Shown here piece after piece: positions 7,116 through 39,171 of a stretch of DNA of 64,000 nt (positions within the stretch are counted from its first letter, which is position 1; each line of letters opens with the position of its first letter). Source of the DNA: a virus; the IMG/VR virus record IMGVR_UViG_3300042520_001372. One strand, 5' to 3'. A model generated the notes under the pieces. It was not told the origin of the DNA. It saw nothing but the letters and a program-made list of their open reading frames with translations, and made no database searches. The translations under genes were made by a program, and so were the position numbers.

Positions 7116-7557
7116 ACCTAAATATACGAAAAAAAAGGGAGGGAACCAACCCTCCCCTAATCTTTTTTTAAGCTTCAACATCGCCGAACCCGGCATTGTC
7201 TGTTAACTCCATCGCTTCATCTAAAATACCGTGTATCTTATCAGGGTCAGCAAGACCCGAAACATAATCCCCAAAGGTGTCTTCCTTGATCTGACATTGA
7301 TTAAGGTCCTTAGCTACAGAGAACATAATATACTCTGGATCTGGAACTACTTCCCCTGTCAGCATGTGTCTCATCAATAAAGATGGTGAAATTAGTTTAG
7401 TAGTAATAGCGTTAGCCATAGCGTGGCATTCAACACCGTAAGTCTCTTTAACTAATTTGTGAATGCTTAGTACATGTTCGTTGTACTCCACAAGTGTTTT
7501 TTTATTTTCTCCCATACCTAAATATACGAAAAAAAAGGGAGGGAACCAACCCTCCCC
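7112..7557. repeat. identical 46-bp direct repeats (7112-7157 and 7512-7557) flanking one gene
   Basis: CCATACCTAAATATACGAAAAAAAAGGGAGGGAACCAACCCTCCCC twice, 400 bp apart. Confidence 0.9.
7168..7515 (-). CDS. hypothetical early protein (leaderless)
   Basis: Start corrected to MGENKK. Confidence 0.75.
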   Translation of the reverse strand: MGENKKTLVEYNEHVLSIHKLVKETYGVECHAMANAITTKLISPSLLMRHMLTGEVVPDPEYIMFSVAKDLNQCQIKEDTFGDYVSGLADPDKIHGILDEAMELTDNAGFGDVEA

Positions 7558-7566
7558 CAATTTTTT

Positions 7567-7917
7567 TTAATCTTCGTTTCCTGCCTCCTCTAAAACATCC
7601 CAAAGAGCTTCCAATGAATCAACAGCTGAATCAATTAAGAAATCCTCATCAATCGCAATTCTATCAATCTCAATTTTATTATCATAACCAATACTTAACT
7701 CAAATTGATCCTTATCAGCAACATCATCCCAATCTTTCTCTGAAAGCATTTGTCGGAAAGTAGTTAGGAGAACATCCTTATCAATTACTTGCTTTGGAGC
7801 TTCATCCTGCATTTCTGCAGATAAATCTGCTAACAACTTAATTACATCATCTTTAGTAAAGATGGAAGGGTAGCTGTTGGAAACCCTGTCGATTGCGTTT
7901 TTAATATTGTTTATCAT
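7567..7917 (-). CDS. hypothetical acidic early protein
   Basis: Promoter at 7940; S.PSIFTKDDV motif; strongly acidic C-terminal half. Confidence 0.75.
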   Translation of the reverse strand: MINNIKNAIDRVSNSYPSIFTKDDVIKLLADLSAEMQDEAPKQVIDKDVLLTTFRQMLSEKDWDDVADKDQFELSIGYDNKIEIDRIAIDEDFLIDSAVDSLEALWDVLEEAGNED

Positions 7918-7964
7918 AACCTTTTTTTATTTCTTTTCTATACCTAAAGATACGAATCTTCTCT

Positions 7965-8144
7965 TTAATAACCAACTTTTATTTTATTTTTTTCCTCAAC
8001 ATAAATGTTAAGAATGTTAGAAGCTCCTTCGTAGTTACCGCTAGTCAACATCATTGTTGATAATGCTAAGATTCTAGCCAAGTCTCTCTCCTTTGGAGTC
8101 CTGCTTGTGTCGTCTGCAATAGCTTGTAGTTCTTTATTTCCCAT
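7965..8144 (-). CDS. hypothetical early protein (leaderless)
   Basis: Start corrected to MGNKEL. Confidence 0.65.
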   Translation of the reverse strand: MGNKELQAIADDTSRTPKERDLARILALSTMMLTSGNYEGASNILNIYVEEKNKIKVGY

Positions 8145-8217
8145 ACCTAAAGATACGAATAAGCCTCTAAACAAACAACTAATTTATTTATTCTTTTGTT
8201 GGAAATTAAAATTGTTT

Positions 8218-8288
8218 TTCGTATCTTTAGGATGTCGGAAAGATGGAGTACGAAGGGCGGGGTAAAAACCTGAAGAAATCAGACGTAG
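8218..8288 (+). ncRNA. promoter plus putative structured small RNA, copy A
   Basis: Plus-strand TTCGTATCTTTAGG followed by about 57 nt conserved with 9736-9805. Confidence 0.5.
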
Positions 8289-8314
8289 GCTGTTCTTTAA
8301 AAAAAAATGGTATG

Positions 8315-8343
8315 AAAAAAAACCGACCCCTTTCGGGGCCAGC
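8315..8343 (-). terminator. intrinsic terminator
   Basis: GCTGGCCCC-GAAA-GGGGTCGGT followed by a T run. Confidence 0.8.
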
Positions 8344-8365
8344 TTCTCATATAACTTAAACCAAA

Positions 8366-8593
8366 CTATTGCTCTGTGAGTTCTTTTACCTTCTCATTGT
8401 GAAGCTCAATCATTGCAAAGTAGAGCTCGATGCTTTGGACTCTGGATTTAGAACTTAATCCCAATGTCTGCTTAGCTGCATCCCTAGCTGAGAATCTAGA
8501 CATCTTCATGCCTGTTTTGATTTCAAATTCAAGACCTGTGATGATTGTCTTCAATCTGAAGAGTTCGATGTTGTTTTTTTCTGTGATTATCAT
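8366..8593 (-). CDS. hypothetical early protein
   Basis: Promoter at 8620; GLEFEIKTGMKMSR motif. Confidence 0.75.
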   Translation of the reverse strand: MIITEKNNIELFRLKTIITGLEFEIKTGMKMSRFSARDAAKQTLGLSSKSRVQSIELYFAMIELHNEKVKELTEQ

Positions 8594-8659
8594 AACCTTT
8601 TTTTTATTTCTTTTTTCCTATACCTAAATATACGAATAAGCCTCCAAGGGACCAACTAA

Positions 8660-8690
8660 AATAAAAAAAAAAATGGGCCCGAAGGCCCAC
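8660..8690 (-). terminator. intrinsic terminator
   Basis: TGGGCC-TTCG-GGCCCA plus long T run. Confidence 0.85.
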
Positions 8691-8693
8691 TCT

Positions 8694-9482
8694 TTAAATG
8701 AACGATTCTGCAAGCTCGTAAAGCTTCTCATTCAATTCAATATCTCTATTGAAGTTCTTGATAGACCTAGCCGTCTTATTTCGGCCGGTAGAGGCTTTGT
8801 ATTTAAAACCACCACGAACCATCTTCTCTTGAATCACATTAAAGACTGTCCAAAGATCATTCCCTTCATCCTCAGAACGAACAGGCTTAAGAATTTCCTC
8901 AGCCGTAACCTCAGCTCCACCTTCTCCAAATCTAATACCCAAAGCAGCTAAAGCCATCTCAACCTTCTGATCCTCAGTCAAAGTAACCTCTCTAAATTTA
9001 TTCAAGGTCTCAACAGTCACCGGTAAGGTTTCAACCAACCCCATAACCGTCTTCTTTAACTCCTCAAAAGAATAGCCCTTATGACGGATGGTCATAGAAC
9101 CGAAATCTTTGGTTGCAATAACCAACCCATTAGAACAAATCAATCTGAACAAACCGGCTCTGAACTGGAATGAAGAAAGACCATCGTGAGAGTTACTCAA
9201 TAGGATCTGAGGGTAAACAACCTCTCCATCCTCACTCTTAATAACTACATCGTCGTTTCTGAATACAACCATGTGCTTACTAAAGCTTCCACCCGCTTCA
9301 TCTTTGCGAGTCTTTCTTTGCTTTGCATCAACAACATTCCATCCCATCGTAGCCATATCACCGATTAAATCGATAGTGGGTACGTGAACATACTTTGAAG
9401 ATACTTTTGAAGAGACACCAGTCTCGAGAACTGCAGGGGCCATAATGGCGATCTGCTCTGTGGTTAAAAATGTGTTTTTCAT
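8694..9482 (-). CDS. DUF932/DUF945 family protein
   Basis: KHMVVFR...PQILLSNSHDG.SSFQFRAGLFRLICSNGLV...R.ED...LWTVFNVIQE; start corrected to MKNTFL. Confidence 0.85.
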   Translation of the reverse strand: MKNTFLTTEQIAIMAPAVLETGVSSKVSSKYVHVPTIDLIGDMATMGWNVVDAKQRKTRKDEAGGSFSKHMVVFRNDDVVIKSEDGEVVYPQILLSNSHDGLSSFQFRAGLFRLICSNGLVIATKDFGSMTIRHKGYSFEELKKTVMGLVETLPVTVETLNKFREVTLTEDQKVEMALAALGIRFGEGGAEVTAEEILKPVRSEDEGNDLWTVFNVIQEKMVRGGFKYKASTGRNKTARSIKNFNRDIELNEKLYELAESFI

Positions 9483-9735
9483 AACTGTTTTTATCTTATT
9501 GATACCTAAATATACGAATAAGCCTCCGAAGAAGCAACCTTTAGACAAAAAAAAATAACGACCATCCAAAGCATTTTTTGTGGCCACTATAGTGTTTCTG
9601 TAGGTTCTAGAAGCTTTTGATTGTTATTTTATTATGTGCCCTAAGCTCGTTTCCTTATGTAACGTCAATGTCTCTGTAGACTACATTAATAAATATGGTA
9701 AAAATAAAAAAAAGTGTTTGTCCCCTGAACTAATG

Positions 9736-9805
9736 TTCGTATCTTTAGGATGTCGGAAGATAGTACGAAGGGCGGCTCCAAAGGGGTTGAAGAAATCAGA
9801 CGTAG
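9736..9805 (+). ncRNA. promoter plus putative structured small RNA, copy B
   Basis: TTCGTATCTTTAGGATGTCGGAAGATAGTACGAAGGGCGG...TGAAGAAATCAGACGTAG, matches 8218-8288. Confidence 0.5.
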
Positions 9806-9819
9806 TTTGGGCCCTGGAA

Positions 9820-10045
9820 TAAGTGGTACTTTCAGTGGTACCTTACCACTCCCCCTAGAACCACATCCCCAAGTCTTCCCCAGCGGTTTCTTTTCCCAGA
9901 CCTCCCCCCCCCCATGTCCCGCCTGCGGCGGGTCTCCCCTTACCCCCCACTGTTCCTGCAGGTCTCCCCCCATGCCCGGGGCGGTACCTCGAGTCGATCG
10001 ACCGGCGAGTCTTGCGAAATCGACCGGAGCGGTACACATGCCGGT
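9820..10045. other. GC-rich, C-tract/palindrome-dense non-coding island (candidate terminus/packaging/origin core)
   Basis: Poly-C runs; hairpins AGTGGTA-CCT-TACCACT and CCCGCC-TGC-GGCGGG; closely spaced palindromes CCTGCAGG, CCCGGG, GGTACC, CTCGAG, GTCGATCGAC. Confidence 0.6.
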
Positions 10046-10252
10046 AAACTCTCCTAAATACTCTCCACTCTTCCCTTGTCTATTTTCTACACACCATTAC
10101 CATTCTTTTATATAGTACCATGTTATACCCACTACTAGTTAACACACATTACTTTTCATTACACACTTCCCATATCACCCTTACCCTTTATATTATGTTT
10201 TCTCATTGTCTTATAGTCTTACCATACGTCTATACTTATCTATAGTATACTC

Positions 10253-10426
10253 TACGGTTTAATAAGCTACGGTCGTCTAACACTACGGTTGACTCCTTAC
10301 GGTTTTCTTTACAGTTCCCTATACGGTTTACTCACTACGGTTGTCTAGTTCCTACGGTTACCTATCTTACGGTTACCTCTACCATACTATCCTACGGTTG
10401 ACTCTTCTACGATTTTCTATACGGTT
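10253..10426 (+). repeat. array of about 12 TACGGTT heptamers
   Basis: Copies at 10253, 10268, 10284, 10298, 10310, 10322, 10336, 10353, 10368, 10393, 10408, 10420 (three carry one mismatch). Confidence 0.85.
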
Positions 10427-10475
10427 TTCTTTATATTGGCTATACCCTGAATTACTCTACTCCTTCTTACTAGGT

Positions 10476-11012
10476 TCAATATTCATGTCTCATAGCTTTC
10501 TTTAATACCTTTCTTGCTTTATACAATTGTGATCGGACAGTTACATGCCCTACATTTAATTCCTTTGCTATCTCTGGTCCAGATAGTCCTTCAATACAGA
10601 ACATTTCAATCACTCTTTTATATCCCGGTGCTAAATTATCTATACATTTCATAACCACCTGTAAGTCCATAGGTGAATGAGTATCATTACATCTTCCTGG
10701 ATTTACTACGGTTACATCTTTCTGATATTGCTCATACTTTCTCTTCTTTATATGATTAAGTGCTGTGGTTATTACCACTCTACCACACCATGCTACTAAG
10801 TAATTATCATCCTTTAGTTGTCCAATATACCTAAAGATTCTTACAAAGCTATCACAGACTACATCATCTGTATCATCTACATTATTGACATACTTGTATG
10901 CTAGTTTTGAAAAGTATGCCTTATACCTAGTATAGAGAAGTGCTTTAGCACTCTCTGAACCTGCTTTAAGTTCTTGAGCTAGCTTAACCGTATCTACCTG
11001 TTCCTGTTCCAT
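10476..11012 (-). CDS. ECF-type RNA polymerase sigma-70 factor
   Basis: Region 2 (DDVVCDSFVRIF...W..R...T.ALN) and region 4 (L.PGYKRV...EGLS..EIA.ELNV...TVRSQL.KAR). Confidence 0.9.
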   Translation of the reverse strand: MEQEQVDTVKLAQELKAGSESAKALLYTRYKAYFSKLAYKYVNNVDDTDDVVCDSFVRIFRYIGQLKDDNYLVAWCGRVVITTALNHIKKRKYEQYQKDVTVVNPGRCNDTHSPMDLQVVMKCIDNLAPGYKRVIEMFCIEGLSGPEIAKELNVGHVTVRSQLYKARKVLKKAMRHEY

Positions 11013-11494: not shown

Positions 11495-12418
11495 TTATTG
11501 TCTAAGTGTTTTTTTGTTTCTGTAATTTACATCTGTGAACATTGTTGGGATCATATCTGTATGAGTTGCTCTGATAGGATTAATATCCAATCCTCCTCTA
11601 CGGGTATACAAACAAGCTACCATCAAACGAGAAGGTTGATAAGCTTCTGTTAAATGCATAAACATCATCTCACAAATCTCTTCGTGGAAATGAGACACCT
11701 CTCTATGAGATACGATGTACTTTGCTAACGATTTGAAATCAGGAGCATTTGTTCCGGTAGTCTCAATCTCGATATAAACATCACCCCAGTCTGGTTGGTT
11801 GGTTACCCTACAGTTACTTCTCAAAAGGTTTGAAGTTATCTTAGTCGTAACTGCTACCTCATTAGGAGCTACTTCCATTGATTGCAACTGACTAGCATCT
11901 GAATGGAATGTATCGAAAGTTTCTTCGTCTAAATTAACTGCCTGGTCAAGGTGTATGTAATCTGTTCCAAACTCTACCTCAGGAGTAAACTCGTTCGTAA
12001 AGAACTTAACTTCAACTTCTGTCTGTAATAGTTTAGATAGATCTTTAGTGACCATCTGCTCAACTAAGTTAACACATTCGTGTGCTGTAGAACCCAAACG
12101 GGTCATGTTAAAGGAGTTCAAGTAAAGCTTGATTGACTTAGACTCTACGTGAGCAGGACTATCTGCCGGACAGTAGATCTTCATCATTCCGTTTACCGGA
12201 CGTCCATTCTCTGTGATTGCTGATACTTCATAAGCATTCCAAACATCACCGCCTACAAAGGGTAGGTCACCTTCTTTAATGCTGTAACTCTCTCGGTTGT
12301 AGTAGCGAGGTACTGCAACGAGAAGCTCAGGAGCATACGTTGACTTGTAACCCTCACCGCCTACCTTACCAAGGTGTTTGCCGGCAATTTCAATTACTGT
12401 ATTTTGATTATTATCCAT
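11495..12418 (-). CDS. queF: NADPH-dependent preQ0 reductase (bimodular QueF)
   Basis: VESKSIKLYLNSF, LLRSNCRVTNQPDWG, FHEEICE, YTRRGGLDINP. Confidence 0.95.
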   Translation of the reverse strand: MDNNQNTVIEIAGKHLGKVGGEGYKSTYAPELLVAVPRYYNRESYSIKEGDLPFVGGDVWNAYEVSAITENGRPVNGMMKIYCPADSPAHVESKSIKLYLNSFNMTRLGSTAHECVNLVEQMVTKDLSKLLQTEVEVKFFTNEFTPEVEFGTDYIHLDQAVNLDEETFDTFHSDASQLQSMEVAPNEVAVTTKITSNLLRSNCRVTNQPDWGDVYIEIETTGTNAPDFKSLAKYIVSHREVSHFHEEICEMMFMHLTEAYQPSRLMVACLYTRRGGLDINPIRATHTDMIPTMFTDVNYRNKKTLRQ

Positions 12419-26319: not shown

Positions 26320-27127
26320 TATATTCCTTCCAGTACCTATAAGTTCTAATTAAATCCTCTTCGCTTCTAACTTGTAGACCTCTTAAGATTGTTTGCCATG
26401 CTTCAAAGTTCTCAACCTCTTCTGGAGTGCCGAACACTGTAACGAAGTCGGTAGGGTAGCAAGTCACTTTCAAATTATCCTGAATCAATAAATTATAAAC
26501 TAACGTAACGTAATATTCTCCGTTGTAGTTTATATCTAAGTCCATGAGTTGTTGGAAATACTTCTTAATATAAAATCCTTTCTTAAAGTAGTAAGTCCCG
26601 GTAGAGGCATGCTCCTGCATCGGATCTTCCGTATAAGGCTCTTTCTCTTTTATCTCAGAAACCGCTAAGTCACTTTCTTTCATATAAGCCATAAAGGTAG
26701 AGCTTAATCGGTGAGGATGAAATCCAACATGACTCAAAATACATCCATCACTTTCACTTTCCTTAATCCATTTTTTAAATTCTGCGTAGTTCCACAAGTA
26801 GGGATTATCACAGTAGCAAACTATAACCTCTTCATTATCATCAATATAGCTCTCCATTCCTGTCATAGTGTATACCGGGCCTTTTTTGTGAGGAGGTACT
26901 CCAACGATGGTAGCATCAGACCTAATATTAATTATAATTTCTCTCATGGAGGTTGTTGTTAGGTGATGGTGATTGCAGATAAAAATCAACTCATCTTCTT
27001 TATTAAACATACCGCAGATGTATTCAAGAATCCTTTTTCCGTTAACTGTAATAAGAGGTTTTGGATCTCTGTACCCTGCTTTTACAAACCGGTTACCAAA
27101 TCCGGCCATTGGTATAATTACTTTCAT
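26297..27127 (-). CDS. sugar-phosphate nucleotidyltransferase
   Basis: IIPMAGFG.RF..AGY..PKPLI, EK, A.TG.YYF, NGEYYV, FGTPEE. Confidence 0.88.
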   Translation of the reverse strand: MKVIIPMAGFGNRFVKAGYRDPKPLITVNGKRILEYICGMFNKEDELIFICNHHHLTTTSMREIIINIRSDATIVGVPPHKKGPVYTMTGMESYIDDNEEVIVCYCDNPYLWNYAEFKKWIKESESDGCILSHVGFHPHRLSSTFMAYMKESDLAVSEIKEKEPYTEDPMQEHASTGTYYFKKGFYIKKYFQQLMDLDINYNGEYYVTLVYNLLIQDNLKVTCYPTDFVTVFGTPEEVENFEAWQTILRGLQVRSEEDLIRTYRYWKEYNEQGDTQ

Positions 27128-28596
27128 AAACTCTTTCTGTATTTTTCTGATTCTAAACTTAAAAGCTCAAACATATCATCACTGAATAATGTATGTCTGG
27201 ACTGTAGTGTTTCTGTAATGTAGTGAATATAGTTGTTGAAGGCAAGTACTTCCAGGCTTTGTTTTTTATCTGAGAAGATTACTGCGTCAGGGAAGTAATA
27301 ATGCTCACTCTTCTTCTCTTTAGCAAAAGCTAATGTAAATGTTATAAAGCTTAATATCTGGTTCTGCAAATACTTCTGTGCTTTGTATGTAATATCTTTC
27401 ACCAAAGTTAACGCTTCTTCCTTTGAATCTGAACTTATTATCAATCCGTGGTTCTGTAAGAAGGTAATGCTTGGTTTGTCTTTCAATCGCTCTAAAGCTT
27501 TGAATAGGGAATACCCAGGTGCTGTATAAGGAACATAGGTATATTCATAATCGTTATAAATTTCCTGAAGAACTTCTTTTACATTACCTAAGCAAAGAAT
27601 AGCTGTCAGGTAAACAGGGTGCAGGTGGATAGTGTATTTGTTTAATAAAGCATGTAAGCCAACTTCCATCGAAGGTCTTTTACCTGTGTAGAATATATCA
27701 GATTCAAATAAAGCATCATACCTCTCAGAGGTTGAAATACCTTTCATCATAGCAGGTCGAACAATTGAGTAACCATTCACTCTACTCACATCTTTCATCT
27801 TAAAGCCAGAAGCTTTTATAAACATATGATCACCGGTCTTTATAGAGATATTTCCTCCTGTGTGTTGACATAGTAAGATATCAGCTCCAAGGTTATTAGA
27901 AAGTTCAATAAAGTCTTTTATGTCTGTGTTATAGTCTTTAACAAAAGTAAATAAGTATTCATTAGCAGGTTTTATAAACCGGTAACTTATTACTACATCA
28001 ACTACTTCATTCTTATCTCCAATGTTCCTAATTGGCTTTTCTGGTATCATATCAACAATAACATCCGCAATAGCAATTTGCCTTTCGTTTATTTTTATAG
28101 CATCAAGCTTCCTCCTATTGATTGCATCTATGACAGCACTGTACTTATAGCCCCTCTTTTCAGTATCTCTGATTATCTTCCAGTGAGTACGTAATGTTTC
28201 GTCTGTATTAATAAAGATTTTAAGATCAGTTAACTGCTGAGATTGTTCAGTATAGAATGCATGAAGGCCTTGATTGATAATTATTCTATTAGATTCAATC
28301 TTTTCAGGTGCTTTAAATGTTCCTGTACCGTGGTCGTAAGCAGAACGATAAATAGAATTACCTTCAGATAGTTCCTTTAAGTGAATATCTCCTAACTCTA
28401 AGTTATTAGCTTCTGGGTTAAGGTGGGTAAAGATATCCCAATTCGGACTTGTCCTTTCCCACCTATGCAAATCATCTGTACTAAGAGTGATTGTATTTTC
28501 TTTTCCAAAAAACAATTGCACAATCCCGGTCATTGTAGATTTACCTACTCCAGATTCTCCAGCAATACCTATTATGTAAGGTTTTACTAAACTCAT
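27124..28596 (-). CDS. phosphoribulokinase/uridine kinase fused to class II aldolase-like domain
   Basis: N: IGIAGESGVGKST, DD.H.WER, Y.H.TG.F, GLH, WKI.RD...RG; C: GGNIS.K, KASG, RPSME..LH, H.HP, LQNHGL. Confidence 0.85.
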   Translation of the reverse strand: MSLVKPYIIGIAGESGVGKSTMTGIVQLFFGKENTITLSTDDLHRWERTSPNWDIFTHLNPEANNLELGDIHLKELSEGNSIYRSAYDHGTGTFKAPEKIESNRIIINQGLHAFYTEQSQQLTDLKIFINTDETLRTHWKIIRDTEKRGYKYSAVIDAINRRKLDAIKINERQIAIADVIVDMIPEKPIRNIGDKNEVVDVVISYRFIKPANEYLFTFVKDYNTDIKDFIELSNNLGADILLCQHTGGNISIKTGDHMFIKASGFKMKDVSRVNGYSIVRPAMMKGISTSERYDALFESDIFYTGKRPSMEVGLHALLNKYTIHLHPVYLTAILCLGNVKEVLQEIYNDYEYTYVPYTAPGYSLFKALERLKDKPSITFLQNHGLIISSDSKEEALTLVKDITYKAQKYLQNQILSFITFTLAFAKEKKSEHYYFPDAVIFSDKKQSLEVLAFNNYIHYITETLQSRHTLFSDDMFELLSLESEKYRKSL

Positions 28597-37344: not shown

Positions 37345-37543
37345 CTTCTAATGGTTCAACTGTTTGTACTTCATTAACAAAGAAGTATTCGTCTCCGTGT
37401 TTGAATACTTTCTCGGCATGCCATGCCTCTTTTATTTCATTGGCTGATTCGGTAGGGAGAACAGCTCCAGGTCGAAGCTTTAAGATCCTAACAACCTCAT
37501 ACATGTTATCCTGTATAAGAACTATTCTCCCCTTGCCAACCAT
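37235..37543 (-). CDS. hypothetical protein
   Basis: Coupled to the groEL stop; C-terminus overlaps the next gene. Confidence 0.6.
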   Translation of the reverse strand: MVGKGRIVLIQDNMYEVVRILKLRPGAVLPTESANEIKEAWHAEKVFKHGDEYFFVNEVQTVEPLEDEQDRNQGELTVDSTENTAGGQMDLGGGDGDQEEHN

Positions 37544-39171
37544 TACCCTAGCATTAATTGATTAGACGCATCGTCCATGCTGTTAGAACCGTTCTCTGTA
37601 AGTTCATCTGCAACTACACATTCAGTCAATAGGATTGTTCCTGCTACTGATGCTGCATTCTCTAGAGCCGTTCTAGTTACTTTAAATGGATCAATGATAC
37701 CAGCATCTTTTAAATTAGTAACATTCTCTTCTGTAAGATTCCAACCTGTCCACTTATCGGAATTCGCGCAAATTTGCCCGCTAATATCAGATATTTGTTG
37801 GTACTCATAACCAGCATTAGTTAGAATTTTATAGAATGGCATTGTACATGCCATGTATATAATTTGATATCCGGTACTTGTCTCACTGGCAGTCCAGCTA
37901 GGCATACTTCGTAGTAAAGCAATTCCGCCGCCAGGAACAATTCCTTCAGCAATAGCAGCTCTTGTAGCATGTAAAGCATCCTCTACTCGGTCCTTCTTCT
38001 CTTTCATTTCAAGTTCTGAATTACCTCCAACGTGAATGATTGATACCCCGCCTGTAAATTTAGCTAAACGCTCCTGAAGCTTCTCCATCTCAAAAGGACT
38101 CTTTGCATTATCGATCTGAGCTTTCAAGTCTTCAATACGAGAAGTAATAGCTTCTACTTCACCTTTACCGTCGATGATAGTAGTAGATTCTTTCTGGATA
38201 TTAGCCTTGCGTGCTTCACCTAACCATGCTTTATCTACCCGGCTTAACTTCATTCCTTTCTCAGGAGAGATTACTTGACCGCCTGTCAAGACTGCAATGT
38301 CTTCCATGATAAGCTTTCTTCTATCTCCGAAGTCAGGAGCTTTAACTGCACATACTTTAATAGTACCTCTCATCTTATTTACAATCAAGGTAGCCAAAGC
38401 TTCATTATCAATATCTTCGCAGATGATCAACAACGATTTATTATCAGATGAAACTGATTCGAGGATAGGAAGTAAGTCCTTAGCCTGTGAAAGCTTCCCA
38501 TCATAAATTAAAACTAAGGGATTGTCTAACACTGAAGACATAGTTGCATTATCAGTAACGAAGTGAGGTGATTTAAATCCTCGATCGAACTGAATACCTT
38601 CAACTGTCTCTAAGTAGGTATCACCCGTCCTAGATTCTTCAATAGTAACAATCCCGTCTCTGCCTACTGCAGCTAATGCTGAAGTGATTAGAGAACCTAC
38701 CTCAGGGTCGTTGTTTGCAGACACAGAAGCGATCTGGTCTAACTGCCCCTCTGAAGTAATATCTTCAGCGATATTTTCTTTGATGTAAGCAATTACTTCT
38801 TTAACTGCTTTATCGATATCGCGTTTAATTTGTACTGCATTACCTCCGTTATCTAAGGCTTTTAATCCTTGATTGGTAATGAATTGAGCAAGTAGGGTTG
38901 CTGTAGTAGTTCCATCACCAGCAATGTTTGCTGTCTTGATAGCTGCTTGTTTAAGCATATCAACGGCGATTGAATGTACTGGGTCTTTCAAAGAGATAAT
39001 CTTTGCAACCGTAACTCCGTCCTTGGTAGAACGAACTTCACCTGTCTCATTTCTATAAACAACATTCCGGCCGTTAGGTCCTAAAGTTGCTGTAACTGCA
39101 TTTGCAATCTTATCAATTCCTTCTGATAATTTCTTGCGTGCTTGGTTTGAATATTCTATCTGTTTGCTCAT
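37543..39171 (-). CDS. groEL: chaperonin GroEL
   Basis: TLGPNGRNV, TKDGVTVAK, AGDGTTTAT, KAPDFGDRRK, GIVPGGG, IIDP.KVTR. Confidence 0.97.
   Translation of the reverse strand: MSKQIEYSNQARKKLSEGIDKIANAVTATLGPNGRNVVYRNETGEVRSTKDGVTVAKIISLKDPVHSIAVDMLKQAAIKTANIAGDGTTTATLLAQFITNQGLKALDNGGNAVQIKRDIDKAVKEVIAYIKENIAEDITSEGQLDQIASVSANNDPEVGSLITSALAAVGRDGIVTIEESRTGDTYLETVEGIQFDRGFKSPHFVTDNATMSSVLDNPLVLIYDGKLSQAKDLLPILESVSSDNKSLLIICEDIDNEALATLIVNKMRGTIKVCAVKAPDFGDRRKLIMEDIAVLTGGQVISPEKGMKLSRVDKAWLGEARKANIQKESTTIIDGKGEVEAITSRIEDLKAQIDNAKSPFEMEKLQERLAKFTGGVSIIHVGGNSELEMKEKKDRVEDALHATRAAIAEGIVPGGGIALLRSMPSWTASETSTGYQIIYMACTMPFYKILTNAGYEYQQISDISGQICANSDKWTGWNLTEENVTNLKDAGIIDPFKVTRTALENAASVAGTILLTECVVADELTENGSNSMDDASNQLMLG

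Follow-up and report, generated by a model that had tools for sequence, protein, structure and literature searches.

A function is known for few phage non-coding RNAs, and most of these imitate an RNA of the host that can be recognised. Known decoy RNAs usually resemble an RNA of the host. Pseudo-ToxI of phage phiTE and rAcrVIA1 belong to the decoy and anti-CRISPR RNAs of phages. Further phage precedents are the Racrs (PMC10651486), the vsgRNAs (10.64898/2026.06.01.729453) and rAcrIIA1 (10.64898/2026.06.03.729762), and FopS provides a precedent within the phylum Bacteroidota for multicopy small RNAs that act by base-pairing (PMC11697453). Here we describe two related stretches of a 64-kb window (the whole stretch of phage DNA that was analysed, part of a complete virus record of 166,276 bp) which, judged from their sequence, are very probably stand-alone early small RNA genes. 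This family is kept behind an early promoter, usually as a pair, by large aquatic phages of Bacteroidota that belong to two unrelated lineages.

Two early promoters on the plus strand

The nearest cultured relative of the window phage is Flavobacterium phage vB_FspM_immuto (here immuto; PolA 61% identical) of the genus Immutovirus. Nearly all genes of the window lie on the minus strand. A 13-mer early promoter, which we take to be of the Bacteroidota −33/−7 type (TTG / TAnnTTTG), matches the window 27 times at one mismatch or fewer, against 0.34 matches expected. A preliminary description of this DNA had recognised only two copies in the plus orientation, at 8218 and 9736, and this is true for the window and for the entire 166,276-bp genome. 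As that description also held, the same element follows both (copy B is 84% identical to copy A, E 1e-14). The copy A promoter is identical in consensus to the minus-strand early promoters. The features of the locus are as follows.

8198..8230, plus strand: promoter of copy A, with a −33-like GTTG at 8198-8201 and a −7-like TATCTTTAG at 8222-8230
8232..8298, plus strand: small RNA copy A, predicted ends
8366..8593, minus strand: 75-aa early gene between the copies, no fixed partner of the element, replaced in relatives
8694..9482, minus strand: DUF932 gene of 262 aa between the copies
9716..9748, plus strand: promoter of copy B, with TTTG at 9717-9720 and TATCTTTAG at 9740-9748
9750..~9810, plus strand: small RNA copy B, 3′ end undefined
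9840..10040, no strand assigned: GC-rich island directly 3′ of copy B, also found after the second copy in relatives
10250..10430, plus strand: ten short ACGGT(T) repeats, iteron-like, with similar ones in L144, L229 and L221 and 13 ACGGGT in immuto

Copy A opens with UGUC at 8233 and continues through a short linker, a conserved block (8247-8257), a hairpin that we call P3 (8258-8272), a further conserved block (8273-8288) and a tail (8289-8298) that closes in a short U run. In copy B, UGUC at 9751 precedes a conserved block (9762-9772), P3 (9773-9789) and the other conserved block (9790-9805). This copy lacks a U tract, so its 3′ end is undefined and may extend into the GC island. The element had been given an extent of roughly 57 nt; it is real, but reaches about 10 nt further in the 3′ direction, and the tail to about 8298 is common to the jumbo-phage copies described below.

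The variable middle forms a hairpin in copy A and in copy B, as originally proposed. When each copy was folded against its own shuffles there was no excess stability (z +0.35 and −0.29), and structure was therefore judged from homologues, among which the pairing of the hairpin is kept. The notion of a structured RNA is supported, although single copies fold no better than shuffles. The end-to-end stem that had also been suggested is paired in 81% of cells but is weak and tolerates mismatches. The closing stem P1 is weaker than P3 and has no fixable register, different lineages fitting different ones.

The two copies bracket the DUF932 gene in the window and its close relatives, and do not do so in L144, L229, L221 and L244. 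Neighbouring genes vary freely, and the clade of the window has no same-strand gene downstream. Because the neighbours vary, a cis-acting leader is unlikely and the element is better regarded as a stand-alone unit. The ACGGT-type repeats have the same orientation as the RNA gene, and together with the GC island (window 9840-10430) they are a candidate for the replication origin or a genome-end signal of the clade.

RNA contigs from freshwater metatranscriptomes cover the minus-strand early genes of window 7500-9520, and in run X1 the contig ends lie near predicted promoters at 8124, 8604 and 9521. Across four metatranscriptomes, such contigs cover the neighbouring minus-strand genes and leave 8204-8337 and 9678-9811 uncovered. 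Since the contigs carry no strand and short RNAs are lost from libraries, these uncovered stretches are uninformative about the small RNA.

Several other genes of the window may be recorded here. Just past the repeat region the phage encodes an ECF-type sigma factor (10476-11012), and a QueF gene lies at 11495-12418. Work on 7-deazaguanine DNA modification discusses immuto (10.1101/2023.04.13.536721); given QueF in the window, the DNA of the window phage is probably modified too. A fusion of phosphoribulokinase/uridine kinase with class II aldolase (27124-28596), a Cpn60 chaperonin (37543-39171) and a 91-aa early gene whose homologues match WYL_2 (PF10902; 6505-6780) are also encoded.

Homologues and conserved features

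We gathered homologues by pattern scans of viral and metagenome contigs, from DUF932 gene loci and from contigs of linked proteins, and discarded most pattern matches in viral contigs as in-frame coding look-alikes. The 26 distinct homologous sequences belong to two phage groups. One is an Immutovirus-like clade, whose members mostly carry two copies, separated by 0.8-1.8 kb. The other consists of jumbo phages of about 480 kb (L013, a 476-kb record; L133, L145, L495-497 and L501); the complete jumbo record that was searched has one copy of the element and no homologue of the window phage PolA. A model built from close relatives only recovered the held-out sequence L243 and the jumbo copies with E values of 1e-10 to 1e-12, and four further jumbo variants were found by model beside a linked gene. 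In one jumbo contig (L145:760-1100) the RNA gene is followed, on the same strand, by several sequences that resemble tRNAs and have T-loops, none of which ARAGORN calls.

Genome G014 has two copies that have diverged strongly, both preceded by the same promoter; their 5′ conserved block is partly altered or lost, and for this reason the binding face proposed below is not sharply defined. A third promoter in G014 (L558:1623, plus strand) lies back-to-back with the RNA gene, and its opening bases are those of the second G014 copy; this is possibly another non-coding unit.

Searching complete relatives with the model mostly returned nothing, which does not show absence because the model also misses the candidate in immuto. 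There, a stretch of 25 kb yielded a single antisense early promoter, and a similar element follows it at the matching position, at about 67,460-67,521 on the minus strand of NC_055915.1. The element matches the family pattern, which was written after seeing it, and 20 shuffled genomes gave no match; the family model gives it no score. We therefore treat it, by sequence likeness, as a diverged candidate and not as a proven member. The candidate RNA and its antisense promoter overlap the 32-aa hypothetical gene KNV73_gp146 of immuto (L251:7455-7553; NC_055915.1 67454-67552), whose annotation may be mistaken.

The general order of parts is UGUC, a short purine linker, an optional hairpin, a conserved block, P3, a conserved block and a tail. 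The 5′ conserved block reads AGUACGAAGGG in most members and the 3′ block reads RAGARAUCA, whereas the optional second hairpin is an insertion of 0-30 nt at one fixed site. In jumbo copies, a stem and then a U tract form the 3′ end, and copies of the copy A type finish with a shorter U run. In all 21 members checked, which come from both lineages, the conserved UGUC lies 11 nt beyond the start of the −7 box. Wherever orthologous loci were compared, conservation was higher in the element than in the flank downstream of it.

P3 differs among members in both length and sequence while its pairing is kept, and its purine-rich flanks are conserved. All sequences share its C-G pair; the pair after it is either G-U or G-C, and the fourth pair occurs as G-C in 13 sequences, C-G in 10 and A-U in 3. 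The covariation score of P3 is 0.303, compared with 0.166 ± 0.015 for shuffled alignments (none of 500 shuffles reaches it), to be read with the caveat that the sequences are related and that they were aligned by fitting them to the model. Two counts of pair types did not rise above shuffles (390 and 354 of 500). A lack of homologues or covariation, or a match to an Rfam family, had been named in advance as grounds for dismissing the element; homologues and P3 covariation were found, and there was no Rfam match.

Proposed role and competing explanations

In the model we favour, each copy would be a gene for a 60-95-nt non-coding RNA. The host sigma70 holoenzyme would transcribe it from the phage early promoter, and the RNA would thus be made in the first minutes of infection. 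The RNA would fold round a hairpin whose length and sequence are irrelevant, with the two conserved purine-rich strands held side by side and flanking stems closing the structure. Through the conserved purine face, the RNA would most likely bind an RNA-binding protein of the host, for which a defence effector, a translation factor or an RNA-turnover factor are candidates. The RNA would titrate this partner as a decoy, and two or more copies would raise the dose; titration is proposed as the mode because the gene is retained in two or more copies. As the jumbo phage lacks a PolA homologue, a target shared by both lineages is more likely to belong to the host than to the phage.

The fixed promoter spacing, the conservation, P3 covariation, the occurrence in two phage lineages and the lack of a fixed neighbour gene are consistent with a decoy that occupies an RNA-binding protein of the host, a reading that we put forward tentatively and at somewhat less than even chances. 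Against it stand the shuffle-level folding of single copies and pair-type counts, and the fact that no mimicked host RNA was found, whereas known decoys usually have one. Comparisons with host genomes, rRNA, Cas13b repeats and T4 RNAs revealed no host RNA open to mimicry. A pattern search of GTDB yielded no credible host homologue, its matches not being homologous, and a model search of two samples of 151 Bacteroidota genomes each (about 300 in total) found none. One host candidate (L481; 23.5 bits, E 0.004, in 1 of 151 genomes) was rejected as chance, as it is not conserved in 40 relatives. Comparison with the sarcin-ricin loop, peptidyl-transferase centre and 5S loop E of Escherichia coli rRNA gave matches of 7-9 nt (P 0.08-0.94 against shuffles), and comparison with two Bacteroidota Cas13b repeats gave P 0.10-0.98; mimicry was not supported in either case. 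Cas13b itself is present in 2 of 401 Bacteroidota genomes.

An anti-defence decoy may be the form that such a role takes, and is our leading guess, with no target found. There is a small chance that a phage-specific RNA fold, common to unrelated Bacteroidota phage lineages, neutralises a host defence by binding an effector protein or an alarm nucleotide. A partner would point to an unrecognised RNA-binding target of defence or takeover, in a phylum whose transcription and translation signals are unusual. A first test is within reach through the candidate copy in a cultured pair, immuto and Flavobacterium sp. LMO8.

Other explanations make different use of the same observations. The RNA could silence host mRNAs by base-pairing during takeover in the manner of FopS, given that it is multicopy, has its own sigma70 promoter and conserves its 5′ end. 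We consider this unlikely: pairing to 214 start regions of the phage, which included phage genes only, showed no preference for start regions or codons and stayed at shuffle level (36-40 of 40 shuffles equal it), and Bacteroidota chromosomes hold no credible homologue in the GTDB pattern search or in the 151 + 151 genomes searched by model. Bacteroidota initiation regions are purine-rich, as are the conserved parts of the RNA, and the two would therefore pair poorly. Nor is it at all likely that copy B yields an origin-linked transcript which primes or opens replication, by an R-loop, at the GC island and repeats. The adjoining GC island had suggested such a primer from the start, and the layout recurs: in the window and in L144, L229 and L221, a GC island with ACGGT-type repeats comes after the second copy, immuto has the same arrangement, and copy B lacks a U tract. 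Copy A and the jumbo copies are nevertheless unsuitable, the former lying 1.5 kb upstream and closing in a U run, the latter ending in a terminator-like stem, with neither GC island nor repeats downstream in L013; moreover, priming needs no sequence conservation across unrelated replication systems. A DNA-level site beside the promoter (an operator or a site for a replication protein), with the RNA incidental or absent, would accommodate the weak predicted folding and the fact that the RNA is read from sequence only. G-U pairs, compensatory changes and length-variable hairpins in P3, the stem with U tract and the fixed orientation to the promoter fit an RNA instead, which makes this explanation improbable.

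The remaining alternatives are weaker still. If the RNA were an independent aptamer that soaks up a nucleotide signal, such as a CBASS cyclic dinucleotide, and had either arisen from the c-di-AMP riboswitch or converged on it, this might explain why jumbo variants look superficially like the first three-way junction of that riboswitch and why the optional hairpin sits at its P2 site. However, profiles of 25 real riboswitches score the phage RNAs at −5 to −22 bits in register, compared with 45-65 bits for real members, and 0.8-18% of genome positions match the phage RNA score. The 6-bp P3, second junction and pseudoknot of the riboswitch are absent, the RNA has no 5′ leader position, and cmscan finds no RF00379 match at E ≤ 10. 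We thus reject derivation from this riboswitch and judge the aptamer explanation very unlikely. The preliminary description put forward, among its hypotheses, a 6S-like decoy that sequesters RNA polymerase holoenzyme, and two short pieces of the window copies do match the promoter template strand. The longest such match is 6 nt and is reached by 47% of shuffles (P about 0.47); the two pieces lie 3-28 nt apart among homologues and are absent in L544. They do not track the promoter either, as the same core is kept in jumbo phages that have a different promoter. With the mimic unsupported, the 6S-like decoy idea is unsupported too, and an RNA of one third to half the size of 6S, with no long helices around a central bubble and no Rfam 6S match, makes it very doubtful. 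A new small self-cleaving ribozyme could be imagined from the junction-like layout, conserved purine strands and dispensable helices. It is highly improbable, as hammerhead, hairpin, twister, pistol and HDV-type ribozymes gave no match and there is no flanking RNA that needs release. Equally improbable is a leaderless mRNA that encodes a micro-peptide from a 5′ AUG. Most copies have an NTG codon at the 5′ end, and 14 of 20 keep the core in frame. In L496 and the variants with a long insert, the frame is broken or meets a stop after four codons, L144-B lacks a start codon, and the core changes observed are all non-synonymous (T to M, K to E) while third positions are invariant; a peptide gene was rejected on these grounds. 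The 13-aa open reading frame of copy A is present, and the original view that constraint acts on nucleotides rather than peptide agrees with these data.

Comparison with known RNA families and systems

Copies A and B have no match in Rfam 15, even at E ≤ 10, in line with the initial impression that the element is of no recognised family. An Rfam search with one jumbo variant returned nothing relevant, and a literature search for the core sequence found no relevant context. This phage small-RNA family is uncatalogued with respect to Rfam 15 and the literature searched. Readings of the element as a K-turn, S-turn, anticodon loop or hairpin ribozyme, judged by eye, were rejected because required bases are missing or unconserved. 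A pseudo-ToxI decoy of a type III toxin-antitoxin system was rejected as well, since there are no tandem 35-55-nt pseudoknot repeats and the units are dispersed with their own promoters.

Like 6S RNA (RF00013; 6S-Flavo RF01685), the phage RNA is small and stand-alone and has a purine-rich internal loop. However, 6S RNA is a rod of about 180 nt with a central bubble between long helices, whereas the phage RNA has 60-95 nt, short weak helices and, with a null P of 0.47 and variable spacing, no conserved open-promoter mimicry of the 6S kind. The c-di-AMP (ydaO/yuaA) aptamer RF00379 shares superficially with the jumbo variants a P1-linker-P2 start and a 3′ strand, and differs in its long P3, second junction, pseudoknot and place in 5′ leaders. 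Riboswitches of this class occur above the Rfam cut-off in 4 of 121 sampled Bacteroidota genomes (L532-L535). The stable RNAs C and D of T4 (rnaC, rnaD) are likewise orphan phage small RNAs of unknown function, but belong to a tRNA cluster transcript, whereas the phage RNA has its own early promoter; neither sequence nor structure matched at E ≤ 1 with filters off.

FopS/GibS of Bacteroides thetaiotaomicron (PMC11697453) resemble the phage RNA in being multicopy, in their canonical sigma70 promoters and in a conserved 5′ end. In contrast, the phage RNA was found in phages only, with no match in about 300 Bacteroidota genomes, and no seed pairing to phage start regions was detected for it; FopS was compared here by description. 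Compared with the Racrs and vsgRNAs, the phage RNA has no guide segment, its variable part being a hairpin, and was not found to resemble CRISPR repeats, tracrRNAs or any other RNA of the host. For CRISPR-repeat and tracr likeness, this statement covers the Rfam search and two Cas13b repeats. What it has in common with the Racrs, vsgRNAs and rAcrIIA1 is that it is a phage-encoded, stand-alone, promoter-driven small RNA of an early accessory region with a proposed decoy role. A counter-defence RNA of this sort that resembles no host RNA would, should that small chance hold, be the RNA counterpart of the protein ‘sponge’ and inhibitor counter-defences.
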